Shown here piece by piece: positions 5,445 to 29,482 of a stretch of 32,000 nucleotides of DNA. The number at the start of each line of letters is the position of its first letter. Position 1 is the first letter of the stretch. The DNA lies in assembly GCA_016205145.1 (NCBI GenBank), contig JACQJH010000001.1, positions 90,001 through 122,000 of the forward strand. Reading direction: 5' to 3'. Under the pieces are notes generated by a model. That model had not been told where the DNA came from and ran no database searches. It saw nothing but the letters and a program-made list of their open reading frames with translations. The stretch comes from Candidatus Iainarchaeum sp. (GTDB lineage: Archaea > Iainarchaeota > Iainarchaeia > Iainarchaeales > JACQJH01). The position numbers were made by a program, and so were the translations under genes.

Positions 5445-6161
5445 ATGATGCCGCTGAGAATTTTGCGTGAAAGGCGTGTCCCGGAGGAACGGCTCAAGGC
5501 GTTCTGGTGCGATTATGACAAGGGAAAAAGGCGTTCCACGACAAGAAGCAGGAGCAATGATCCCCGTGAACTGCCAAAGGCGTGGTTCGACCAGACCGGC
5601 GAAAGAAAACACGAGCCCATGGCGGTTTCGCTTGCCCCGCCATTGCCCGGAAGGGTCAGGAGCTTTTACGGCCAATCGCATCTGACGGCTTATCTTGCCG
5701 CGGCGGAGTTCTGCAACAGCGTCGGGAAAACCGGCGATTTGAAGTTTGCGGTTTTGCAGCCAACCCACATTCTCGGCGTCGACAGGCCGAATTTCAGGCT
5801 TGTTGAAAGGGTTTTTCACGCGCCCACGGTGGACAACGTTTTGTCTAATTCCGGCGGAAGCCTTTCGGGCGTTTCATTGTATGGCAAGGCCTTCGAGGAC
5901 AAAATGAAACGGAAAGGATTCGGCCTTTCCGGCAGGGAAAACTTTGAGAAACTGCGGTCCGACGTCCGGCGCGCTTATTCCGAACTTCGTGAAGCGCTTG
6001 TCGGCACTTTTGTGATGAAGCACAAAGGCGACCCGACAGTATTCGACTTCAAGGAACACAATTTCCTGGTCTTGGATTATGCGCCGGAAACCGGAAAGGT
6101 TTTGCTGGCGGTCGTAGATTACCTCAGCGACACCGCATTTTTGGGCATTAACCCGTTTTGA
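5445..6161 (+). CDS. hypothetical protein (start uncertain)
   Basis: 238-aa ORF. The C-terminal ~150 aa look globular (FVMKHKGDPTVFDFKEHNFLVLDYAPETGKVLLAVVDYL). The N-terminal ~60 aa are basic and low-complexity, so the true start may be the internal Met near 5619. Overlaps the MFS gene 3' end by 14 nt. No family recognised. Confidence 0.4.
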   Translation: MMPLRILRERRVPEERLKAFWCDYDKGKRRSTTRSRSNDPRELPKAWFDQTGERKHEPMAVSLAPPLPGRVRSFYGQSHLTAYLAAAEFCNSVGKTGDLKFAVLQPTHILGVDRPNFRLVERVFHAPTVDNVLSNSGGSLSGVSLYGKAFEDKMKRKGFGLSGRENFEKLRSDVRRAYSELREALVGTFVMKHKGDPTVFDFKEHNFLVLDYAPETGKVLLAVVDYLSDTAFLGINPF

Positions 6162-7257
6162 TTTCAGGGCTGATTTTTTCCGCTATTACAAGTGAAACAA
6201 CCGAGCCTGCCGCCGCGAACAGGAAAACGCTTTGCATTCCGAAAGCCTGCGCTATCGCCCCGCCGAGCAGGGGGCCGATGATGAGAGCGAGGCTTTGTAT
6301 GCTTCCAAGCAGGCCGGTCGCGGTCGCCTTTTCCGCGTTGTTTTCGGATAAGTTTATGAGGCAGCCCACGAATAGCAGGCTGAAAGACGCGGCGATTATC
6401 ATCTGGATCGGGATGATGTGGAAGTAGTCTGATACGAAGCCGAGGGCGAGGAAAGCGATTGCGGTTGCAATCGTTCCCGCCTTGATGAGTTTCCTGCTGT
6501 CCGTTGAATGCTTTTCCGCATAGCCGCCTATCGCGTGCATGAGAATGAACTGCGTCAGGGGGTTGACCGCCCATATTATGCCGAGCCAGAAGTTGCTTGC
6601 GCCGAGGCTTTTGAAAAACAATGGATAGACGACCCAGACCGAGTTCGCGGAAGTGTGCCTAACGAGGAATGTGAGGTAAACGGGCCAGTTTTTTTTCAAC
6701 AGCTGTTTGGGAAATTTCGGCACCGACATTTTTTGCGACCCGATTTCGGGCAGGAACAGGGAAACGATGAACGCGAGGAAAAAGAACAAAGCGCTTGCAG
6801 TGAAAATCTGCCCGCTTCCGGCAAGGAACGCGAAGATTATTCCACCAAAAAACCAGCCGAAACTTCCCCAAGCCGAAATGCCTGAAAGAGATTTTCTGGC
6901 TTTTTCGTGCCTTGAAGCCGCGGCCATGAGGGGAAAGGAGAAAATGCCGACGGCAAGGCCGGCGAAAAAGCGGATGACTGCCATTGAATAAAAGTCTGTA
7001 ATGAACAATTGCGCCAGGAATGCGAGTGAACTGGCAAGCAGGCCGGCCTTGATGAACGTATCGCGCCTGCCGGAGATGTCCGACCACCTGCCGAAAGCGT
7101 AGTATGAAAGGAAACTGCCCAAACCGAAAGCCGTGCCCGCCAGGCCGATTTCAAACAGCGAGAGGCCCAGGTCTTTTCCGAACAACGGGATGAAAAGATA
7201 GCAGAGCGCGTAGGCAACGTATGCCAGGAAGTATGATGCGCGCAGCCGCTTGTCCAT
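6148..7257 (-). CDS. MFS transporter
   Basis: The track ORF runs to 7599, but that extension would cover the divergent promoter and gene. The first sensible Met is at 7257 (MDKRLRASYFLAYVAYALCYLF...). About 12 hydrophobic segments and an MFS motif-A-like GRWSDISGRRDTF. Confidence 0.8.
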   Translation of the reverse strand: MDKRLRASYFLAYVAYALCYLFIPLFGKDLGLSLFEIGLAGTAFGLGSFLSYYAFGRWSDISGRRDTFIKAGLLASSLAFLAQLFITDFYSMAVIRFFAGLAVGIFSFPLMAAASRHEKARKSLSGISAWGSFGWFFGGIIFAFLAGSGQIFTASALFFFLAFIVSLFLPEIGSQKMSVPKFPKQLLKKNWPVYLTFLVRHTSANSVWVVYPLFFKSLGASNFWLGIIWAVNPLTQFILMHAIGGYAEKHSTDSRKLIKAGTIATAIAFLALGFVSDYFHIIPIQMIIAASFSLLFVGCLINLSENNAEKATATGLLGSIQSLALIIGPLLGGAIAQAFGMQSVFLFAAAGSVVSLVIAEKISPEIKTG

Positions 7258-7280
7258 GAATTGCTTGCAGGGCGTTAACA

Positions 7281-7290
7281 ATTTAAAACA
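7281..7290. promoter_or_regulatory. single A/T box shared by two divergent, apparently leaderless genes
   Basis: atttaaaaca is the only A/T-rich element in the 54-nt spacer 7258-7311. Its centre lies ~26.5 nt from ATG 7312 (+) and ~28 nt from ATG 7257 (-). Confidence 0.45.
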
Positions 7291-7311
7291 CTTGCCGCAA
7301 TCTTTGTTTGC

Positions 7312-8370
7312 ATGTCCGTTGAAGACGCATTGAAGCAGAACAAGCCGAAAATCGACCGGGAACTTGAAAAAATTCTGCCGCGCAAAATCGGCAAAGCCTG
7401 GGTCGAATGGTTTCTGGGCAGAAGCGCCTACGACTGTGATTATGAAACACTGACAAAATCCGTTTCGGAACCGATTTGGGATTTTTTGGACCGCGGCGGG
7501 AAAAGATGGCGCCCTACCCTGATGCTCTGGAGCCTTGAAGCCGTGGGCGGAAAACCGGAACAATTCTACGAGTTCACGGCGATGCCCGAATTCATTCACA
7601 CTGGCACCATTGTCGCCGATGATTTGGAGGACAATTCAACCGAAAGAAGGGGAAAGCCCTGCATGCATCTCTTATACGGTCTTGACATAGCATTGAACGA
7701 TTCCAACATAATGTACTTTTTGCCTGCCGTGCTCTTGTACCGCAACAAAAAGCTTTCTCCGGGCCAGAAGGAAAAAATTTACGATTTGTTTGCCGAGGAA
7801 ATGATGCGCGTTTCCATCGGCCAGGCCATGGACATATACTGGCACAGGCACCAGTCAGTGAAAGTTTCAGAGGCGAACTACCTGCAGATGTGCGCCTACA
7901 AGACGGGTGTTTTGGCAAGGTTTTCAGCCAGGCTCGGCGCGATTCTCGGCAACGCTTCCGAAAAGCAGGTTGAAGCTTTGGGCAAGTTCGGCGAAAGCCT
8001 TGGAGTTGCCTTCCAGATACAGGATGACATTCTCAACCTGAAGCCGGAGTCCGGAGAGTGGGGCAAGGAAGTGGGCGACGACATCCAGGAAGGCAAGAAG
8101 ACTTTGCTTGTGATCCACGCCCTTGCAAACGCGCCCAGGGAAAAGGCAAAGCGCCTGGCGGAAATTCTTGAAAAGCACAGTTCCGGCAAAAAGGATATTG
8201 CAGAGGCCATTGCAATAATGGATGAAGCCGGCTCTTTCGCCTACGCGGCAAAAATGGCTCTCGGAATAGTCGAAAAAAGCTGGGCGGAAGCCGAAAAGGT
8301 TTTGCCTGAAAGCATGGCGAAGGGAAAACTGCGCGAGTTCGCGTTCTTTGCCGTGAAAAGAAAGGTATAA
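7312..8370 (+). CDS. trans-polyprenyl diphosphate synthase (probably geranylgeranyl diphosphate synthase)
   Basis: 352 aa. First and second Asp-rich motifs are IVADDLEDNSTERRGKP and FQIQDDILNL, and GKKTLL is also present. Product chain length cannot be read by eye. Confidence 0.85.
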   Translation: MSVEDALKQNKPKIDRELEKILPRKIGKAWVEWFLGRSAYDCDYETLTKSVSEPIWDFLDRGGKRWRPTLMLWSLEAVGGKPEQFYEFTAMPEFIHTGTIVADDLEDNSTERRGKPCMHLLYGLDIALNDSNIMYFLPAVLLYRNKKLSPGQKEKIYDLFAEEMMRVSIGQAMDIYWHRHQSVKVSEANYLQMCAYKTGVLARFSARLGAILGNASEKQVEALGKFGESLGVAFQIQDDILNLKPESGEWGKEVGDDIQEGKKTLLVIHALANAPREKAKRLAEILEKHSSGKKDIAEAIAIMDEAGSFAYAAKMALGIVEKSWAEAEKVLPESMAKGKLREFAFFAVKRKV

Positions 8371-8408
8371 AAACAACGGAGCCGTTTTTTGATTGAACGG
8401 TCTTTTTT

Positions 8409-10781
8409 ATGAACGCACGCCTTGTTTTTGTCCTGCTGCTTGCGTTGCTTGCATTGGCTGGCTGTGCCGCGGTCGACAAGAAGACAATCGAGGCGTTCAA
8501 GGCAATTCCTGAAGTGCAGTCTTTTCTCGCGCAGAACCCCGATGCGCAGGTAACAGGCTATTCGCTTGACAAGCTGACGGTTGAAGGGTCCAAAAAGGAG
8601 CTCCTGAAGCAGTGCCCTGACCTGGAAATCAAGGACTATTTCCTGGTTTCGGCGAAATCCAAGGACGAAAGGCTTGAGGCATTGCTTGACAGGAAGTCAA
8701 GGGAAGTTGCCTGCATTTTGCGCACTAAAACCGCGAGGTGCGCCCTGGACGACTTCAAGTGCAGTGAAAGCGCCGGTCAGGGACAGGCAAAGCCGAAGTG
8801 CGTGGAAGGCGAGGTTTTGTGCAGCAACCAGTGCGTTGTCCCGTTGTGCGCATCTAACAGCGAATGCAACGACAATGACGCCAAAACCACTGACACGTGC
8901 AGCAGCGCGGGCAAATGCAATGCGAAATGCTCCAACAAGGAGGTGACCTGCAGGCCCAACCAGCTTTTGTGCAACGGCGCGTGCAAGAATGTTGCGTGCA
9001 GGGAGGACAAGGACTGCAATGACAGGGAAAGCCTTACAACTGACAAGTGCAGGAAACCGGCGTCATGCGAATCCTTCTGCGAAAACACGCCTTCAAGATA
9101 CCCGGTAAAAGTAAGCGTGCTGTCCGTTGACGATTTTTCGCCCAAGGTTGACGGCCCAATCAGCATTTTTGTCGGAGTAGCCAATCCTGACAACCACCAG
9201 TTGCAGTATACCCTGTTTGCCGGCAAGAAGGCGTTTTCAAACGTTGCCGCCATCAAGACGACAATCCTTGATTCAGGAAAGCAGAAAATCAAGGCGGTAA
9301 TCCACGACGTTGAAGCGGACGAGAACGTTTCCAAGGAAATCGAAATCAATGTGCGGCCGGCAACCGCAACTTCCCTGTGCGCGATTGACGAGAACTGCGA
9401 CGACGGCATAGACGGATCAGTCGACAAGTGCGAGAAGGCAGGCACCTGGGATGCACTGTGCAGGAACACTTACGCTGATTCTTCGCAAAAAGCGCTTCCA
9501 TCGATAGCGGGCTTTTCAAAGGCAAAAACCGAAAGCCTGAAATGGATTGAAGGCGGAACAAAAACCGTTTACTCGAAAGGCGGCGTGTCGGTTGAAGTGC
9601 TTGTCCTGCCGCTCAAAAACCATTTCCTGGCACTGGATTTTGCTTCAAAAAGCCTTGACACGTTCCAGAAAAAAACCTTTGTCGACGAAAACGGCGGCTA
9701 TTTCACTGCAAGCTATTTCACCTATTCAAAGGTTTTCTGGGTATCCGGCAACAACGCTGTAGCAGTAATGGCCCTGAACAAGGAAAAAGTCGACCTGGAG
9801 CAGTTCAGGAGCGCGCTCTTTGAAGTGCTTCCAAGCAATTCTGCTGCGCAGGGCATCTGCAGGCGCGGCGAGATTGCCTGCAACAACGAGTGCATCAAGC
9901 CTGTCTGCGTTAAGGATCTGGACTGCAATGACAAGAACACTGGCACTGATGACAGGTGCGAGAAGTCAAACAGCTGTGAAGCGGAGTGCAAGCATTCTGA
10001 TTTCGCTTTGCCTCCCGCCATAGACTATGTTTCATCGGATGTTTTCCGGCCAAATGCCGGGCAGAACTTTTCAGTCGCAATGTCCGCTGTCAGCGTTTCC
10101 GGCAACGCCCTGGATTACTCGATTGCCTTCGGGTTGAACGAGTTCAAGGGCAAGCCATCCGCAACGAATTGGTTTTCAAAAGCAGGCAAGCAGAAAGTGA
10201 AGCTGACTGCAAGAGACGTTGTTTCGGGAAAAACAGCAGTCAAGGAGCTTGAATTCAATATCCTTGCCACCACCGCGGCGCCGAGGTGCACTGCGGATGC
10301 CAACTGCTCCGACGGCATAGCAACGACAATCGATTACTGCCAGGGTTCAGGCACCGCCGGCTCGTTCTGCAAGAACATCCCTGAGACCAGCGAGGAAAAG
10401 CAGTTTGCCCCGAAGCTCGGCGGTTTCAAGCTTTCGGTTTTGCCGGACGTCGTTTTCCCGGTCCCGGCAAGAAAAGCGGTTTACGAGAACAACGGCCTGA
10501 AGGCGGAGGTTTTCATAGCTGAATTTGAAAGCCACGAGCGCGCTCTCGATTTTGTTTACAACGGCCTGAAGACCTTCCCGAAAGAGGGAACCGAAACTTT
10601 CAAGCAGAGTTTCGGCGGCTACTTCCAGCGCAGTTACCTGTCTTACCGCAAGGTTGCATGGGTTTCCGAGAACAAGGCAGTGCAGGTTTCGTCCTACAAC
10701 GCGGAAGCGCTTGACCTCAACGCCTTGTCCGACTATTACATGATAAATTATCCGAGCAAGACAGCCCAGCCGGCAAGCTAA
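8409..10781 (+). CDS. secreted Cys-rich lipobox protein with an internal ~300-aa duplication
   Basis: 790 aa. Signal plus lipobox: MNARLVFVLLLALLALAGC. Three 8-Cys modules (e.g. CRPNQLLCNGACKNVACREDKDCNDRESLTTDKCRKPASCESFCEN). The unit 8-Cys module / Ig-like segment / short 4-Cys module / alpha-beta domain occurs twice (8949-9836 and 9858-10760). Confidence 0.75.
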   Translation: MNARLVFVLLLALLALAGCAAVDKKTIEAFKAIPEVQSFLAQNPDAQVTGYSLDKLTVEGSKKELLKQCPDLEIKDYFLVSAKSKDERLEALLDRKSREVACILRTKTARCALDDFKCSESAGQGQAKPKCVEGEVLCSNQCVVPLCASNSECNDNDAKTTDTCSSAGKCNAKCSNKEVTCRPNQLLCNGACKNVACREDKDCNDRESLTTDKCRKPASCESFCENTPSRYPVKVSVLSVDDFSPKVDGPISIFVGVANPDNHQLQYTLFAGKKAFSNVAAIKTTILDSGKQKIKAVIHDVEADENVSKEIEINVRPATATSLCAIDENCDDGIDGSVDKCEKAGTWDALCRNTYADSSQKALPSIAGFSKAKTESLKWIEGGTKTVYSKGGVSVEVLVLPLKNHFLALDFASKSLDTFQKKTFVDENGGYFTASYFTYSKVFWVSGNNAVAVMALNKEKVDLEQFRSALFEVLPSNSAAQGICRRGEIACNNECIKPVCVKDLDCNDKNTGTDDRCEKSNSCEAECKHSDFALPPAIDYVSSDVFRPNAGQNFSVAMSAVSVSGNALDYSIAFGLNEFKGKPSATNWFSKAGKQKVKLTARDVVSGKTAVKELEFNILATTAAPRCTADANCSDGIATTIDYCQGSGTAGSFCKNIPETSEEKQFAPKLGGFKLSVLPDVVFPVPARKAVYENNGLKAEVFIAEFESHERALDFVYNGLKTFPKEGTETFKQSFGGYFQRSYLSYRKVAWVSENKAVQVSSYNAEALDLNALSDYYMINYPSKTAQPAS

Positions 10782-21665: not shown

Positions 21666-23285
21666 TTATTTTTTGCCAATGCGCTCCAGCTTTTCATCCG
21701 CCTTCTTTTCCGCTTCCAGCCTTTCCAGGCCCGCGCCTTTCTCGTAGACGAATTTCATGAGTTCGAAGACAAGCGGGGTCGCCTTTTTCGCCTGATGGAA
21801 CATTTCGATTGAAACCCTTCGGTAGTCGGCGTGTCCCTGCGGCGTCGACCTCAGCTCAACCAAGTGGTACATTTCACGCGCGTTGAGAGTGAAATACCAT
21901 CTTATTTTGTACGCGAGCGGGACAACGTATTGTGCCTGCAACGGCATTTCCTTCGCGATTTTATCGTAAGTTTCCTTCGCTCCTGCCATTGCCTTTTCAA
22001 ATTCCTTCAAAACGCCCGCCTTTTCCAGTTCGGGATAAGTGTCATAGCCGAAGTTTGCCGTCAAAAGCTGGCGTTCCTGTGTAAGCTGGCGATGTCGGTG
22101 CAAGTCACGGAAGCCGCCGTAATTTGAGAGCAAGTCGAAAGTGTAGTATGCGTTTTCGAAGCTTCGCAAAGGCTTGTGCCTGCGGTTCTGCCTGTGCGCA
22201 AGAGATGCATGGATGACTTTGCGCTTTTCCTCTTCGCCCATTGCGGCAACGATTTTTTTGAGCTGGTGCAGGGGCTTGTCGCTGTGCGCGTAAAGCAGCG
22301 CGCAAACGATTTTGTTGTCGGCTTCCATGTCAAAGTCGACCAGTTCCACTTCCTTTGCCTGCTCCGCATGTTTGCCTGCAAGCAGTTCTTTTGCGGTTGC
22401 GTCAAGGTTTGCGTTCGCCTGCCTGAAAAAATCCTGTGTCGGGCCGCCGTATTTTCCGGCCGCGCGCTTGACGAAAGAAGGAATGTAAGTCAAAAGCTCT
22501 TCGTGCAATGAAGAAGCGATGCCGTTGATTTCCTTCAATGGCGAGGCGTGCATTTTGAGTATGAGGTATTCGAACGCCCTGCCATTGCCGTACAGGCCGA
22601 GGTTTGTCAGCGTTGAAGCAGGCAGGAGGCCGCGCAGGAGGTCGCAGGTTTTAGCCTTGATTGTCGACTTGTACGCGCGGTCGGTTGTCTCGGAGTCCTG
22701 CGGAAACCATTCCTCGGCCTGTGTTCTCACTTTCGGCACGAGTTCGGCGTACGTGCCGAACAGCAAATCGCACGTTTCCACGTAATCCTTTTCGAATGCC
22801 GACTGCATTATGCCAGGCTCGAGCAGGTACTGGTATCGGCCGCCCTCTTTCTCGTCAAAGTAAACGTAGCGCGTGCTTTTTTCCAGGGGGGAGAGGCCAA
22901 TGCGTGAATCCTCGAGGACTTTGCTTGCGATGATTGAAACCTTTTCGCATGCGACGTGCGCTCCGCCTAATTCCGCGACGGAATCGTCGCCGTAGCCGAC
23001 CAGAACGCGGTCGTAAAACTCTTCGGCTTTCTTGGTTGCGATTGCCTGCTGTTCTCCGTTTCCAAGTGAATAGTTGACGATTTCCCGGAAGCCGGATTCC
23101 TTGTCGGCAATGAATTCGTCGAGCAAAAGCCTGCGCAATGGTTTCGGCGAGCGCGAATAGCGCGAGAACAGTGCGCCTGAAACGACTTCGGGCAGGTTTT
23201 TGAGGACAAAGACGTTTTTGTCCATGTTCGAAAAAAACGGTTCCAGGATTTTCCGCTCTTCCGAGGAAAAAGAATTTTCCGCCAT
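21666..23285 (-). CDS. long-form ThyX-like (Thy1-fold) protein, putative FAD-dependent thymidylate synthase
   Basis: 539 aa. The C-terminal half has FRDLHRHRQLTQERQ and TLNAREMYHLVELRSTPQGHADYR, which align with the ThyX RHR motif and NxRxLxxxxxLR...H/Q region. N-terminal GALFSRYSRS suggests a second, degenerate copy. Confidence 0.6.
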   Translation of the reverse strand: MAENSFSSEERKILEPFFSNMDKNVFVLKNLPEVVSGALFSRYSRSPKPLRRLLLDEFIADKESGFREIVNYSLGNGEQQAIATKKAEEFYDRVLVGYGDDSVAELGGAHVACEKVSIIASKVLEDSRIGLSPLEKSTRYVYFDEKEGGRYQYLLEPGIMQSAFEKDYVETCDLLFGTYAELVPKVRTQAEEWFPQDSETTDRAYKSTIKAKTCDLLRGLLPASTLTNLGLYGNGRAFEYLILKMHASPLKEINGIASSLHEELLTYIPSFVKRAAGKYGGPTQDFFRQANANLDATAKELLAGKHAEQAKEVELVDFDMEADNKIVCALLYAHSDKPLHQLKKIVAAMGEEEKRKVIHASLAHRQNRRHKPLRSFENAYYTFDLLSNYGGFRDLHRHRQLTQERQLLTANFGYDTYPELEKAGVLKEFEKAMAGAKETYDKIAKEMPLQAQYVVPLAYKIRWYFTLNAREMYHLVELRSTPQGHADYRRVSIEMFHQAKKATPLVFELMKFVYEKGAGLERLEAEKKADEKLERIGKK

Positions 23286-23350
23286 TGCCCCACCAGACTA
23301 AATTAAAGCAATGGCAATGGTTAAATATTTCACTTTTGATTATTGTTTTC

Positions 23351-26300
23351 ATGCCCCATAAAACCGGCCGGCCGCGCCATTATTCCGACAGGGCCATTAA
23401 GCGGCCCGGAAGAGGCTTTTCGCATGGCCAGGGCTCTTTGGACCGCCTGATTCTCCTCGGAATCGTGGTTTTGGTTTTCGCAGTCATAATGCTTGTTGCC
23501 TTTTCCCGTCCGCATGAAAGGGCTGACGGGAAAGTGCAGGCCTATTATGCGGGGAATGGGCGGAGTGGCGTTCGTGAAGTGTTCGACTTTTTGGGCGTGC
23601 TAAAATTTGGCATGAATTCCGGTTCCGGCGGCCCTGAAATTAAGCCCGCCGTCATTCCGGGTGACGTGAACCAAAGCAAAAAGCCGGATGTCGTGCCCGC
23701 AACAGGCACTGACAAGGAACCCGTGATTCGGGCCTGCAGCAATGACTGTTCTTCCGCCGGCTTGAGGCAGTGTTCCGGTTCCGGCTATAATGTCTGCGGA
23801 AACTTTGACGAAGACGACTGCCTTGAATGGGGTTCCTGGACAGGCTGTCCTGACGGCCGGGCGTGCGCCAACGGAAACTGCGAAGTTTCTCGCGGGGTTT
23901 TTTCTTCTGAGGGCCTTGTTTCATACTGGCGTTTTGATGATTTGTCGGATTCGTTTGGTTCAAATGATTTGGTTATGTCCGGCAATGTTGTTGCGGGTTC
24001 TTCGCCTGATTGCGCTTTCGGCGGCTGCCTTGCCCTTGATTCTTCTTCCGGGCAGGCCGAAGCCAGGGGTTTGCCGGATTCGGGCGGTTTGTCTGATTTG
24101 TCGATTGCGTTGCGCGTCAAGTTTGGCGCCGGTGGCGATACTGCCACCCGGGCCTGGGTGGCGGGCTGGGCCGATGCGCAGGGCCAGGGCGTAGGTTTTT
24201 ACCGCTATGGCGCCAGCCAGCTTGTTTTTTTCGCCAACGGCGCGGATGGCAGTTTGACTGATTGCTGGAGTTCCGCCTTGAATGACGGCAAATGGCACCG
24301 GCTGGCGGGCGAGGCGTCTGAACAGCACATAACCTTGTTTGTGGACGGGTTTCCTCTTTGTTACAAGGCGCGTTCCGGCGCATTTCTTTCCGGCGCCAGC
24401 TTCAAGGCCGGCGGCCCGGTTTCCCCATCTGGCAGCGTTCTTGTTGACGAGCTGATGGTTTTCGACCGTTCGTTCACGCAGTTCGTTCACCCGCAGGCCG
24501 GTTACACTTTGCTGGGCGCTTTGCCATCCAACGCGCTTGGCATGAGGGGGCCGGTTATAGGCGCCGGCGGCGCGGTGCCGGGCGTGTACCTGTTTGACGG
24601 CAAAATATACTTTTTTTCCAGCATGGACGCATACAACTATTATAGCCTTTGCAGTTACGCCGTTTCAGGCAGCTCCGCGCGCTCTTTTGCTGTCGAGTAC
24701 GGTGATCGTTACAATACCTTCTTCGTGGACGGGGGCTTGGTGTGTGCGTGGCCGGCAAACCGCGGGCTCGCCGTTGCGCGTCCGCCTGACGACGGCTATG
24801 CCAATGAAGGGGCGGCCGCAACCACGCGGCTGCAGGCGGGCACGTTCCTGTCAACGGCCGGCCTTGACGGGCTGCCCGTGCACCGCAAGCGCCTAATTAC
24901 CGCGGGCTGGCTCAGCCCTGATTTGAAGTCCTTAAAGGAAGACCTTGGCGTGTACGACGAGTCCGGATTCGACGGCATCGCGATAGACGACGAGGTATTC
25001 TTCAATGAACCGGGCAGGCCGTGGCCATTGAATATATTTCAGAAGACCGCCTTAAGCACGGGCCGCAGGTACCGGGAAGGGCAGTTTGACGCCGTCGCCG
25101 GAGAAGTCGGGCAGGCCCTGGGAAAAGCGAAGAACCTGAAGCATAATTACATGGTACTCTATCTGGGCTGGACGCATTCGTCGGTTCTCGGCAACCACCT
25201 GAGCCCGGTGCTCGATGCGGACGGGATACCGGTATTCGACGCCAACGGCCTTAAGCTCCATAACCTGACTGCGGACGAGCAATGGCAAATCATTGCCGGC
25301 AACGCGCGGGTTGCAGCAGGGCTGGCGAAAAAGGCCGGCCTTGAAGGAATCATAATTGATACTGAACAGAACTATTCGGTCAACACCCAGGACCCCGGTT
25401 ACATTGCTTACAAGGGTTCTCCGCTTACCCTCAGCTACGAACAATCCGTGCCGGTCAATCCGGCGCCGTTCGCCGAGTACGAGGCCGCGGCCCGCCAGCG
25501 GGGGCAACAATTGGCATCCGCGATGGCCGAGGAGTATCCGGACATGACCGTGCTCTTCCATTTTGCGTACAGCCTGTACAGCGACAAGGACAGAAAGGAA
25601 ACAGGCGGAATCGACCAAAAGAGTTATTTGGAACGGTATACCCTACTGCCTGCCTTCATCGACGGCATGCTCGAAGGCGCTCCGGGCATCCGGTTCATTG
25701 ACGGCGACGAGTGGACCTACACCATCCGGCGGCGCGGGCAACTGCTTGACCGCAAGAAGCATTTCCTTGAAAACGCGCTTGAAAAATCCGCCACAAACAC
25801 GCCCGGGAACCGACAGATTGAATACGGTCAAGAGCTGTGGGCTACCGTGCTTGAGCAGACGCCCGATGATGCAGCTTGGGTTGATGTAAACTTTATTCCC
25901 GAAGATGAGATTGAATTGGCTAAGCAGTTCGGATACGGAATCCGCGACGCCTTGCGCGCAAGCGAGGGCATGGTTCTGATTTGGCACGCACAGCGTCCGC
26001 CGTGGCCGGTCTACCGGACTGCAAGAAATGGGCAGAGGTACCGCGCCCAGGGCGTGATGCCCGATTCTTTCAGACAGGCGATAAAGGATGCGCGCAAGAA
26101 TGTCGAGGGCAACACCAATCCGGTGATGCCGGTTGTCGGTTTTGTTTCGGCAGGCACGGGGGAAAAAGTTTCAATCACTTTGCCTGAGGCAAGCGACGCC
26201 GACGGGGATTCCTTGATTACCTGGGTTGACGGCCTGCCGGAAGGCGCGTCTTACGAGCCGCTTTCCCGCACAATCGAATGGCCGAACCCGCGCGCGGGAA

Positions 26301-26377
26301 TCTACTCCCTGTCTTACGGCGCTTCCGACGGCTTTTTGGAAGCCGCGGCACAGTTCAGCCTTGTGATTTACGGCTAG
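23351..26377 (+). CDS. large secreted multidomain protein: possible degenerate class III signal, Cys-rich module, LamG/ConA-like lectin domain, ~550-aa putative TIM-barrel-like domain, C-terminal Ig/cadherin-like domain
   Basis: 1008 aa from ATG 23351; the track start 23285 would abut the divergent gene. FSHG/QGSLDRLILLGIVVLVFAVIMLV. CSNDCSSAGLRQCSGSGYNVCGNFDEDDCLEWGSWTGCPDGRACANGNC. LamG-type GLVSYWRFDDLSDSFGSNDLVMSGN...WHRLAG...LFVDG...VDELMVFDRSF. GFDGIAIDDE and GLEGIIIDTEQNY. C-terminal ITLPEASDADGDSLITWVDGLPEGASYEP...GIYSLSYGASDG. Confidence 0.8.
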   Translation: MPHKTGRPRHYSDRAIKRPGRGFSHGQGSLDRLILLGIVVLVFAVIMLVAFSRPHERADGKVQAYYAGNGRSGVREVFDFLGVLKFGMNSGSGGPEIKPAVIPGDVNQSKKPDVVPATGTDKEPVIRACSNDCSSAGLRQCSGSGYNVCGNFDEDDCLEWGSWTGCPDGRACANGNCEVSRGVFSSEGLVSYWRFDDLSDSFGSNDLVMSGNVVAGSSPDCAFGGCLALDSSSGQAEARGLPDSGGLSDLSIALRVKFGAGGDTATRAWVAGWADAQGQGVGFYRYGASQLVFFANGADGSLTDCWSSALNDGKWHRLAGEASEQHITLFVDGFPLCYKARSGAFLSGASFKAGGPVSPSGSVLVDELMVFDRSFTQFVHPQAGYTLLGALPSNALGMRGPVIGAGGAVPGVYLFDGKIYFFSSMDAYNYYSLCSYAVSGSSARSFAVEYGDRYNTFFVDGGLVCAWPANRGLAVARPPDDGYANEGAAATTRLQAGTFLSTAGLDGLPVHRKRLITAGWLSPDLKSLKEDLGVYDESGFDGIAIDDEVFFNEPGRPWPLNIFQKTALSTGRRYREGQFDAVAGEVGQALGKAKNLKHNYMVLYLGWTHSSVLGNHLSPVLDADGIPVFDANGLKLHNLTADEQWQIIAGNARVAAGLAKKAGLEGIIIDTEQNYSVNTQDPGYIAYKGSPLTLSYEQSVPVNPAPFAEYEAAARQRGQQLASAMAEEYPDMTVLFHFAYSLYSDKDRKETGGIDQKSYLERYTLLPAFIDGMLEGAPGIRFIDGDEWTYTIRRRGQLLDRKKHFLENALEKSATNTPGNRQIEYGQELWATVLEQTPDDAAWVDVNFIPEDEIELAKQFGYGIRDALRASEGMVLIWHAQRPPWPVYRTARNGQRYRAQGVMPDSFRQAIKDARKNVEGNTNPVMPVVGFVSAGTGEKVSITLPEASDADGDSLITWVDGLPEGASYEPLSRTIEWPNPRAGIYSLSYGASDGFLEAAAQFSLVIYG

Positions 26378-26417: not shown

Positions 26418-26492
26418 CTGTTTTAAAAAACCTTTCAGGGCAATCGTTTTTATGCATCCAAGCGACGCCATCAAGGGAACCGCGTCAAAAAG
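26418..26492 (+). repeat. direct repeat copy A: promoter plus first 13 codons (partner 28245-28320)
   Basis: ctgttttaaaaaacctttcagggcaatcgtttttatgcatccaagcgacgccatcaagggaaccgcgtcaaaaag is ~84% identical to copy B, with an identical 21-nt core cgtttttatgcatccaagcga. The TATA-like ttttaaaaaa (26421-26430) lies ~26 nt upstream of the conserved ATG at 26452. Confidence 0.85.
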
Positions 26493-28209
26493 ATTTTTCA
26501 TGCCGCATTTGAAACCGGTTGTTGTCTGCGCATTTGTGTTGCTTGTTTTGCTTTCCGGTTGCACCGCCACAAAAAGCAAAGGCGTGGAAAAGCCGGTTGA
26601 TTCCGACAAAAACTTTTTGGATTCAAACCAAGCCAAGTCCGCGCCCGAAACTGGCGGGCCGCGACAGCCGCCAACCACGGAATTGGTTGCTGAACAACCG
26701 GACGCCAATGTTCCGGATGCAAACGCCGGCGCACCCGACGTGAATGCAGCGGCTGCTGTCGTGTTTTGTAACCGGAACGGCGCCTGCGACACAAACGAGT
26801 CCGCGGTTTCCTGTCCGGCCGATTGTGCCATTCTTTCCGGAGGCGGAGGAGGCGGCAATTCGCCACAGCCGCCGTCAGGAAACGATAGCGGTTCGTGCAA
26901 TTCGGACGGCGCATGCAACGGAAACGAGGACACAGCTTCATGCCCTGCTGACTGCAGTGTAAGGCAGTTCAGGCATTATTTGCGGTTTTATGCTTTGGAT
27001 TACTATAATCGGTTTTCAACAAAGCCGCCGGCGCCGGAAGGGCTGGTTGAATTCACCATCACGCAGGGCACGCCTTTTGGCAACCTGCAGGATTATACTC
27101 ATTTTAATGTGACGGATTCCGGCCATGTTGTTTTGACAACTTCCACTGCGCCCAAAACTCTTGTTGCGTTGAGCCAAAGCGAGCTTGACGGCTTGTTTGC
27201 GCAGTATGGTTTTGGCGGGGATAAAAACAACATCTATTCTGGCGTGATTGCAAGGGCTGAAGTCGGGAAAATCCATGAGGAACTTGTAGAACGCCATCCG
27301 GAGCTTTTTCCGAACGGCACTGAATTGTTTGTCGGCGCCGTCATAGGGCCGGACGGGTTGCCCGAGCTCGTGGACAACTTTCCGGTCAGGGAAAGAAGCG
27401 ACATTGCCGACTACCAGCTTGGCAAAACAATGGTTTACCCGCTTCCATATTCGCCGGTCGGCTACGGGCGGTACCGGACGCTTTGGAATCACGGCAGCTG
27501 GGCGGTCAGGGTATATCTTGCAAGAAGGGCCAATAAGCTGGTGAATGGCGTTCCAGGCGTGGAGAATATTTTTTTGGATAACGTGCAATTGCCGGCTTAT
27601 ATCAAATATCTTGGCTCCCGTGTTGGTTCGGTTCCGGTGCCAAATTATGTTTCGCCCGGAAGCAGGGATGAACAGTTTGCTGTTTATGCGAACAATTTTG
27701 TTTCGGTTCTTACTGCCGTTCGCGTAAAAACCGGCGCAAAAATGCTTCTTAACGGTTTGTATGAAGTGAAGGCTAACCAAAGCATTTTTTTTCAAAAACT
27801 AATTGCGTCCGGCCAGTTTGACGGCCTTATGACGGAAAACGGGTTTTTTGCTGACGGCGTGGAAAACAATTTGGGCGGCAGCGCGGCAAGCGTGCAATGG
27901 TACTGGGATCAGGTGCAGTGGTTGAAGCAAAACGGCAAAAACGCGGTTTTTTTGGCGGGCGGGAAGGACGCTTCGAAGGCATCCAAGGCCTGGCTTTGGG
28001 TGCATTTAGTTGCTGACACCAATGTTTTCTTTTCGACCAATCCCAATGAACATTTTGACGTTTACGATTCTCCTTTGGGGTATCCTCTTGACCAGGCTCC
28101 GGTAAAAAACGGCAGCGTGTGGAGCAGGCGCTACGAGCGCGGCACGATTGTCTTTGACGTTTCGGGCGGAAGGCTTGACGACATAAAGTTTGTCGAAGGC
28201 CCGGCATAG
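26452..28209 (+). CDS. lipobox-anchored GH-like protein with two Cys mini-modules; paralog of 18484-20031
   Basis: MHPSDAIKGTASKRFFMPHLKPVVVCAFVLLVLLSGC; alternative start at 26500. FCNRNGACDTNESAVSCPADCA, a GGGGGG linker and CNSDGACNGNEDTASCPADCS. The body is collinear with the 18484 gene (SGQFDGLMTEN, WLWVHLVADT, GYPLDQAPVKNGSVWSRRYERGTIVFD). Confidence 0.8.
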   Translation: MHPSDAIKGTASKRFFMPHLKPVVVCAFVLLVLLSGCTATKSKGVEKPVDSDKNFLDSNQAKSAPETGGPRQPPTTELVAEQPDANVPDANAGAPDVNAAAAVVFCNRNGACDTNESAVSCPADCAILSGGGGGGNSPQPPSGNDSGSCNSDGACNGNEDTASCPADCSVRQFRHYLRFYALDYYNRFSTKPPAPEGLVEFTITQGTPFGNLQDYTHFNVTDSGHVVLTTSTAPKTLVALSQSELDGLFAQYGFGGDKNNIYSGVIARAEVGKIHEELVERHPELFPNGTELFVGAVIGPDGLPELVDNFPVRERSDIADYQLGKTMVYPLPYSPVGYGRYRTLWNHGSWAVRVYLARRANKLVNGVPGVENIFLDNVQLPAYIKYLGSRVGSVPVPNYVSPGSRDEQFAVYANNFVSVLTAVRVKTGAKMLLNGLYEVKANQSIFFQKLIASGQFDGLMTENGFFADGVENNLGGSAASVQWYWDQVQWLKQNGKNAVFLAGGKDASKASKAWLWVHLVADTNVFFSTNPNEHFDVYDSPLGYPLDQAPVKNGSVWSRRYERGTIVFDVSGGRLDDIKFVEGPA

Positions 28210-28244: not shown

Positions 28245-28320
28245 CTGTTTTAAAAATCCTTTTCCGGCCATTCGTTTTTATGCATCCAAGCGAAGCAATC
28301 CGGGCTTCCGCGTCAAAAAG
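28245..28320 (+). repeat. direct repeat copy B: promoter plus first 13 codons of coaBC
   Basis: ctgttttaaaaatccttttccggccattcgtttttatgcatccaagcgaagcaatccgggcttccgcgtcaaaaag. The TATA-like ttttaaaaa (28248-28256) lies ~28 nt upstream of ATG 28280. Confidence 0.85.
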
Positions 28321-29482
28321 CCTTTACGGAAAGCTCATAGTGTTGGGAGTTTCATCAAGCATTGCCGCAGTGAAGACTGTTGAAATTGCAAGGGAACTGA
28401 TCAGGCACGGCGCGGAAGTGCAGGCAGTGATGTCAAAGGGCGCGGAAGACATCATTGCGCCGGGGGCGCTGGAGTTTGCCACGGGGAAGCCTGTCATAAC
28501 GCATCTCAGCGGAATGGTCGAGCACGTCGACCTGTTCGGAGCGCATGGAAAAGCCGATTTGCTTTTGTTGTGCCCTGCAAGCGCAAACGTGATTGGAAAA
28601 ATCGCGAATGGCATAGCTGATGATGCCCTGACAACCATTGCAATGACTGTTGTTGGGGTGAAAAAGCCAGTCCTGGTCTGCCCGGCAATGCATTTGGAAA
28701 TGTGGCAGAACACTGCCGTCAGGGTGAACGTCGAAAAGCTTGGCGTGCTGGGCGCGGAATTCGTGCCGGCGAAAAGCCTTGAAGGCGCGGAAAAAATCGC
28801 GGACAAGGAAACGATTGTGCTGTTTGTGGAACGGGCGCTTTCCGGCAAAAGGCTTGCAGGCAAAAAGGTTGTCGTTTGCGCCGGCGCAACGCGCGAGGAA
28901 ATCGATCCCGTGCGCGTGCTGACAAACAAGGCATCGGGAAAAACCGGCGAGGAAATCGCAAAAGAGGCTTTCAGGCAGGGCGCACAAACCACACTTATAC
29001 ATAATCGGGATTGTTTTGTTTCCGGCATCAAATGCGTGCAGGCGCAAACCATCGAGGAATTCCGCAAGGCAATCCTTTCGGAGCTTGAAGGCGCGGATGT
29101 TTTCGTCTCGGCGGCGGCAATCGGCGATTTTGTAGTGGAAAAGGCGAAGGACAAGCTTGCTTCGGAAAAAGGCGTTGAATTGAAGTTCAGGCCCGCCCCT
29201 AAAATCCTCGCGGAAGTCGTGAAGAAATTTCCCGATTTGTTCGTTGTCGCGTTCAAGGCGGAAACGAACAAGGGGACGGAAGAGCTTGAAAAAATCGCAA
29301 AGGAAAAGCTGAAGGAACTGAAGCAGGGCTTTGTGGTTGCGAACGACGTGGCACATGGTGGAATGGGAACGGATGAAAATTCGGTTTTGATCGTCGGCAA
29401 AAACTTTTCGGAAAGCGTTTCAGGAAAGAAAAGCCTGATTGCCAGAAAAATCGTGGAAAAAATTGAATGCGGTCTGCCATAA
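28280..29482 (+). CDS. coaBC: bifunctional phosphopantothenoylcysteine decarboxylase / phosphopantothenate-cysteine ligase
   Basis: 400 aa from MHPSEAIRASASKSLYGKLIVLGVSSSIAAVK. CoaC region: PASANVIGKIANGIADDALT. CoaB region: VCAGATREEIDPVRVLTNKASGKTG and AAAIGDF. The start is chosen at the conserved ATG of repeat B rather than the track start 28190. Confidence 0.9.
   Translation: MHPSEAIRASASKSLYGKLIVLGVSSSIAAVKTVEIARELIRHGAEVQAVMSKGAEDIIAPGALEFATGKPVITHLSGMVEHVDLFGAHGKADLLLLCPASANVIGKIANGIADDALTTIAMTVVGVKKPVLVCPAMHLEMWQNTAVRVNVEKLGVLGAEFVPAKSLEGAEKIADKETIVLFVERALSGKRLAGKKVVVCAGATREEIDPVRVLTNKASGKTGEEIAKEAFRQGAQTTLIHNRDCFVSGIKCVQAQTIEEFRKAILSELEGADVFVSAAAIGDFVVEKAKDKLASEKGVELKFRPAPKILAEVVKKFPDLFVVAFKAETNKGTEELEKIAKEKLKELKQGFVVANDVAHGGMGTDENSVLIVGKNFSESVSGKKSLIARKIVEKIECGLP

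Follow-up and report, generated by a model that had tools for sequence, protein, structure and literature searches.

In archaea, the TATA box is bound by TBP, and transcription takes its direction from the way the TBP-TFB-DNA complex is oriented, an orientation that the contacts of TFB with the BRE determine. The closest described systems to the one studied here belong to the bidirectional BRE-TATA-BRE class of Pyrococcus, Thermococcus and Haloferax. In T. kodakarensis, divergent start sites lie 52 bp apart around a shared TATA (TTATAAA), and divergent start-site pairs of similar spacing surround a shared TATA in Haloferax volcanii (Warman et al., bioRxiv 10.1101/2020.01.31.928960). The BRE-TATA-BRE promoter of P. 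furiosus PF1918 directed transcription both ways in vitro, giving nearly equal amounts of two transcripts from one TATA element with their start sites separated by 49 bp (Grünberger et al. 2019, PMC6640164). The latter analysis was limited to head-to-tail genes, and the second transcript was an antisense RNA, probably non-functional according to its authors (PMC6640164). In bacterial bidirectional sigma-70 promoters, as described for E. coli (PMC12825309), symmetry of the core elements allows RNAP to bind in two orientations, the binding of one excluding the other; reciprocal stimulation at bacterial bidirectional promoters is also reported in the preprint by Warman et al. (bioRxiv 10.1101/2020.01.31.928960). 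The bacterial case involves overlapping -10 elements in place of a TATA bound by TBP and TFB, and it serves here as an analogy only.

We examined a 54-nt spacer (7258-7311, GAATTGCTTGCAGGGCGTTAACAATTTAAAACACTTGCCGCAATCTTTGTTTGC) between two divergent genes in a 32,000-nt stretch of archaeal DNA (hereafter the window). It separates a gene for an MFS transporter on the minus strand from a gene for a polyprenyl (geranylgeranyl) diphosphate synthase of the GGPPS type on the plus strand (Table 1), with 55 bp from ATG to ATG. The plus-strand CAT at 7255-7257 gives the MFS ATG with its A at 7257, and the ATG of the GGPPS gene occupies 7312-7314. Both starts and the interval between them agree exactly with the initial annotation, and its assignment of the products as an MFS protein and a prenyltransferase is borne out by their Pfam matches (Table 1). 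Products of the same lengths (369 and 352 aa) were called in three independent assemblies (Logan SRR12113383-85). The host belongs to Candidatus Diapherotrites (Iainarchaeota, DPANN): the nearest database proteins are named Candidatus Diapherotrites or Iainarchaeum archaeon, a 100%-identical MFS protein belongs to a Candidatus Diapherotrites archaeon MAG, and the NCBI lineage of Diapherotrites reads Archaea; Nanobdellati; Candidatus Iainarchaeota. The TBP and TFB genes lie outside the window, and the use of archaeal TBP, TFB and RNAP as a frame is justified because the proteins of the window match those of Diapherotrites and Iainarchaeota.

Table 1. Coordinates of the two divergent genes and of the elements identified or predicted in and around their common spacer
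Feature	Position	Strand	Description
MFS transporter gene	6148..7257	-	369 aa; Pfam MFS_1, E=1.6e-30
Polyprenyl (geranylgeranyl) diphosphate synthase gene, GGPPS type	7312..8370	+	352 aa; Pfam polyprenyl_synt, E=7.4e-69
Putative shared TATA box, 8-mer ATTTAAAA / TTTTAAAT	7281..7288	both	-31..-24 from both ATGs; core TTTAAA
Candidate BRE position, GGPPS side	7274..7280	+	GTTAACA, -38..-32; placed by analogy with BRE-TATA geometry
Candidate BRE position, MFS side	7289..7296	-	GGCAAGTG, -39..-32; placed by analogy with BRE-TATA geometry
Predicted GGPPS start-site zone	7310..7312	+	G7310 or A7312, each after a pyrimidine; leader 0-2 nt
Predicted MFS start-site zone	7257..7259	-	A at 7257 after C; leader 0-2 nt
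Substitution-free block relative to strain L006	7229..7328		100 nt; spacer plus the 5' ends of the MFS gene (29 nt) and the GGPPS gene (17 nt)

The sole A/T run of at least 5 nt in the spacer is AATTTAAAA (7280-7288), which lies within the string caatttaaaaca (7279-7290) quoted in the initial annotation. Read off position by position, it is indeed the single A/T-rich element that had been placed 26-28 nt from both ATGs. The palindrome TTTAAA (7282-7287) at its core has its centre at 7284.5, the exact midpoint of the spacer, and thus lies at -30..-25 from both ATGs. Two other registers of the box, GTTAAC and TTAACAAT (7275-7283), were also considered. For the MFS gene they would lie at -26..-19 and place the start site inside the gene, and for the GGPPS gene they would lie at -37..-30 and predict a 6-10-nt leader without SD; they were rejected because they fit the local promoter pattern more poorly. 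Alignment of 13 window promoters yielded no BRE consensus, so that the flanks GTTAACA (plus) and GGCAAGTG (minus) could not be scored. A search with 6-nt seeds detected no inverted or direct repeats and no operator-like palindromes in 7200-7370. Structured RNA and tRNA genes were considered as well, and neither Rfam (gathering thresholds) nor ARAGORN gave a match in the window.

Compared with the described systems, the locus resembles the Thermococcales promoters in having a near-symmetric TATA midway (with a TTTAAA core in P. furiosus), their start sites being 49-52 bp apart and the ATGs here 55 bp apart. In P. furiosus the mRNAs are usually leadered and the second transcript is antisense, whereas here, as read from the sequence, both directions would serve coding genes and both mRNAs would be leaderless. 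In P. furiosus a BRE flanks the TATA on both sides, whereas here a BRE could be recognised on neither side. H. volcanii is a leaderless-dominated archaeon with divergent start sites of similar spacing around a shared TATA, a pattern that the present host would share; it differs in its unusual TATA consensus (TTWT) and GC-rich genome, the present host being a DPANN archaeon with a TTTAAAA-type box.

Both start codons are supported by comparison with homologues. Of 17 GGPPS homologues in the alignment (53-61% identity), the majority have an N-terminus that falls 0-3 residues from M1. The MFS ATG, like those of nine homologues, lies a few residues ahead of the first transmembrane helix; the MFS_1 profile match begins at residue 8. 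The MFS frame is open upstream to 7599, and its sole nearby in-frame alternative is a TTG at -24..-22, inside the A/T box. No SD-like pentamer is present in -22..-1 of either gene, and three other window genes have one. With no SD, a box at -31..-24, which is the local mode, and supported start codons, both mRNAs appear to be leaderless. The zones in which their start sites are predicted (Table 1) were derived from the position of the TATA box, the 49-52 bp spacing in other archaea and the pyrimidine-purine preference. Archaeal start sites favour a purine after a pyrimidine, and both ATGs have a C just before them.

To place these distances in context, the upstream regions of the window genes were anchored on their start codons. 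Promoters of one class have a box starting at -28 to -32 and no SD; they comprise those of 1345-, 3950+, 26452+, 28280+, 16814+, 328+ and 23351+, that of the NUDIX gene (which lies immediately to the left of the window and was seen in L007) and that of PPDK, whose membership assumes that TTG 16725 is the start. The promoter of 3830-, also without SD, is a member too, with its box starting at -35. Promoters of a second class have a box at about -40, or at -45, together with an SD (10986+, GGAGG; 12107+, GGTGA; 23285-, GGTGG). Seven of 11 TATA-like hexamers upstream of window genes start at -32..-29, and A/T content is maximal at -30..-25, so that both genes flanking the spacer have the modal box-to-ATG distance of the window. 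TTTAAA occurs at only 5 sites in the 32 kb. TTTAAAA has 4 sites in the window (6 strand-matches vs 12.6 +/- 4.1 expected, i.e. about two-fold depletion), and all four lie 30-32 nt upstream of the start of a long ORF. This depletion, together with placement at promoters only, suggests selection against stray TATA boxes within genes. Four of 10 oriented TTTAAA sites are followed at +30/+31 by the ATG of an ORF of 300 aa or more, whereas for a random oriented position the probability is 0.22% (0.0022; P ~4.5e-9), a P value that overstates independence because two of the four matches are the shared box itself and two come from a paralogous pair. The starts deduced from the boxes at 26452 and 28280 agree with independent gene calls (585 aa and 400 aa, respectively). 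The simplest reading is that TTTAAAA-like boxes are the TATA boxes of this organism and that many of its mRNAs are leaderless.

We also ranked the box against all other candidate sites. A 23-nt PWM was over-fitted, its own training sites heading the list, and we relied instead on a 12-nt core PWM. Built from 13 other window promoters, a small and hand-aligned set whose results are supporting, not decisive, the core PWM placed the shared box 16th (plus orientation) and 64th (minus orientation) among 63,976 positions. Within 6900-7700, the next best site on the minus strand upstream of the MFS gene ranked 269th; for the GGPPS gene, plus-strand sites upstream of the box ranked ~490th at best. By this measure, neither gene has a better TATA-like site than the box within ~400 nt. 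In the GGPPS orientation it reads TTTAAAAC, the better match to the consensus; in the MFS orientation it reads TTTAAATT, a weaker match with TTTAAAT where the consensus has TTTAAAA followed by C. The initial annotation had named a distant upstream promoter or a different start codon as findings that would speak against a shared box. As far as sequence allows, neither emerged: the neighbourhood holds no better TATA-like site within ~400 nt, and homologue N-termini and concordant gene calls uphold both start codons.

Comparative data come mainly from a sister strain, L006 (ENA ERZ4903072), which keeps the divergent pair; the MFS proteins are 94% identical and the GGPPS exteins ~90%. Across their coding DNA, the two strains diverge by 10.8%, and at third codon positions by 22.8%. 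The spacer shows no substitution and differs by one 1-nt insertion, in L006 at -10 of the GGPPS gene; there the box-to-ATG distance on the GGPPS side becomes 31, equal to the spacing of the 28280+ promoter. The 100-nt run that includes the spacer (Table 1) is the longest without substitution in the 6.7-kb alignment (753 substitutions, 11.2%), a statistic not to be over-read since divergence is heterogeneous and other substitution-free runs of 95 nt and 80 nt occur in the same alignment. Such conservation agrees with a spacer in which nearly every base serves one promoter or the other, and with leaderless mRNAs whose first codons are under constraint; the block could alternatively be a low-divergence or recombination tract and owe nothing to selection. 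Among the loci scanned, the MFS-GGPPS pairing was found only in this species and L006, and the promoter comparison is informative only with L006. The sole match in a scan of the genome collection was an archaeal GGPPS of 50% identity (L001); the gene upstream of it points the same way, and the GGPPS start is SD-led. A metagenome scan gave 80 GGPPS loci at <=55% identity, with other neighbours and non-homologous upstream regions; none of these loci carried the MFS gene. A histogram of divergent-pair spacing (43 pairs from 39 archaeal loci, with a first-ATG ORF caller) was underpowered and showed no interpretable peak. Logan contigs carrying the proteins at the window ends terminate inside the window, and no further promoters were gained from them.

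Taken together, these observations are probably best explained by one bidirectional core promoter, with a shared TATA, that gives rise to two leaderless mRNAs. The 54-nt spacer would then be a minimal bidirectional archaeal core promoter, in which TBP would bind the single near-palindromic box and TFB and RNA polymerase could assemble on it in either orientation. Transcription would start at, or 1-2 nt upstream of, each ATG, yielding leaderless mRNAs for MFS (minus) and GGPPS (plus) with start sites ~51-55 bp apart. The ATG-to-ATG distance is 3-6 bp above the published start-site spacings and is compatible with them provided that transcription begins 0-2 nt ahead of each ATG. Each pre-initiation complex is expected to cover the box and roughly 20-30 bp on its own side. 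Because both complexes would need one TBP-TATA complex and overlapping DNA, they would be mutually exclusive at any instant, and on steric grounds only one orientation would be occupied at a time. The two genes would accordingly share promoter accessibility and compete for each initiation event. The initial annotation had proposed that one box may serve divergent complexes. A single quasi-symmetric TATA at the canonical distance from both genes is present, as that proposal requires, and has precedent in archaea; use of the box in both directions is the part that we infer.

A different view, which we regard as unlikely, is that the box is effectively unidirectional and drives the GGPPS gene, while MFS transcription is weak or comes, with a long leader, from a separate promoter within the GGPPS coding sequence. 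The plus orientation does score higher with both PWMs (10.8/8.4 vs 6.5; 9.7 vs 8.0) and has TTTAAAAC in common with the PPDK promoter, and many opposite-direction Pyrococcus transcripts from such boxes are viewed as non-functional by-products (PMC6640164). A/T-rich minus-strand sites at ~7367-7374 and 7490 might supply the alternative promoter; however, alternative minus-strand sites rank 269th or lower, compared with 64th for the shared box. Moreover, the box is at exactly the modal -30..-25 distance from the MFS ATG, which lacks the SD expected for a leadered mRNA, and the MFS-proximal half of the spacer is conserved as perfectly as the GGPPS half.

It is also conceivable, with very low probability, that one or both start codons are wrong, or that both mRNAs are leadered, in which case the symmetry would be an artefact of annotation. 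In metagenome-assembled genomes start codons are predicted, and the MFS frame, as noted above, is open far upstream and includes an in-frame TTG; that TTG falls inside the TATA box, however, and the N-termini of homologues agree with both starts (GGPPS within 0-3 residues of M1, MFS before the first transmembrane helix), as do the MFS_1 match from residue 8 and the identical gene calls in three independent assemblies. Just as improbable, in our view, is that the central A/T block is a coincidence of compaction without promoter function and that its conservation reflects a recent recombination tract. DPANN genomes are compact, which favours such a coincidence, as do the other long substitution-free runs in the L006 alignment; by our own estimate, the chance that a box falls within +/-1 nt of the centre of a 54-nt spacer is roughly 6%. 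Yet each gene must have a promoter, and the vicinity offers no other candidate; in this window TTTAAAA is scarcer than expected and confined to promoter positions, and on either side the box stands at the locally modal distance from the ATG. A bidirectional core promoter with a shared TATA remains the preferred reading.

An extension of the bidirectional promoter, which we consider rather doubtful, is that the spacer is a selected orientation switch in which competition of TFB and RNAP for the two orientations of one TBP-TATA complex sets a fixed or regulated ratio of GGPPS to transporter. What raises it is the L006 alignment, where no substitution-free block is longer than the one that comprises the spacer and the first codons of both genes. 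If true, it would couple the synthesis of isoprenoid lipid precursors to a membrane transporter in a streamlined DPANN genome and would go beyond a by-product of TATA symmetry.

The idea of a shared-TATA promoter is not new and restates the bidirectional class known from Pyrococcus, Thermococcus and Haloferax; only details set the present case apart, namely that both products are coding, that the mRNAs are apparently leaderless and that the host is a DPANN archaeon. It illustrates current understanding and leaves it unchanged. If confirmed, it would be a very compact case of a shared TATA, with two coding leaderless genes, their ATGs ~55 bp apart, and no rival candidate for a promoter, and it would add an uncultured DPANN lineage to the Thermococcales and haloarchaea in which this architecture is known. 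For the study of how an archaeal pre-initiation complex chooses its orientation without an evident BRE, the 54-bp fragment would offer a handy minimal template.

Besides this locus, a second divergent pair in the window has a 65-nt spacer (23286-23350), which separates 21666..23285(-), encoding a Thy1-domain (ThyX-type) protein, from 23351..26377(+), encoding a 1008-aa membrane-anchored protein. The element TTAAATATTT (23321-23330) lies at -30..-21 of 23351+, as in the leaderless type, and at -45..-36 of 23285-. The latter gene carries a GGTGGGG SD at -9, which would suit a leader of ~14 nt. This spacer is likely a second example of a shared TATA in the window. Two separate boxes are present at each of three further divergent junctions: 3830-/3950+ (119 nt), PPDK/16814+ and NUDIX/328+.

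Some further features of the window were recorded. An ~80-nt near-identical duplicate (26418-26495 and 28246-28323) consists of an TTTTAAAAA box, a 23-24-nt spacer and the first ~14 codons (MHPSDAIKGTASKR and MHPSEAIRASASKS, respectively). It heads two adjacent, otherwise unrelated genes, 26452..28209 (585 aa) and 28280..29482 (CoaBC-type, 400 aa), and appears to be a copied module of promoter and N-terminus. At its 3' end, the MFS gene overlaps a convergent gene, 5448..6161 (237 aa, no Pfam match), tail to tail by 14 nt (6148-6161). Between the GGPPS stop and the next gene (8371-8408), a terminator-like hairpin, CCGTT...AACGG, lies between T-runs; it directly abuts the next ATG (8409) and is kept in L006 save for one T. 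The gene that follows (8409-10781) encodes a 790-aa protein with a signal-peptide-like N-terminus, repeated internal Cys-rich modules and no Pfam match.

The GGPPS gene of L006 (L006:904-3369, minus) encodes 821 aa and contains an intein of ~469 aa (Pfam Hint, Intein_splicing, LAGLIDADG_3). To our knowledge, an intein in an enzyme of isoprenoid synthesis is unusual. It is inserted after ...EFIHNG, begins with Cys and ends with ...THN before Thr. The insertion site corresponds to the junction between G98 and T99 of the window protein (window 7605/7606), four residues before ADDLED, the first Asp-rich motif of GGPPS, and the window allele is intein-free.
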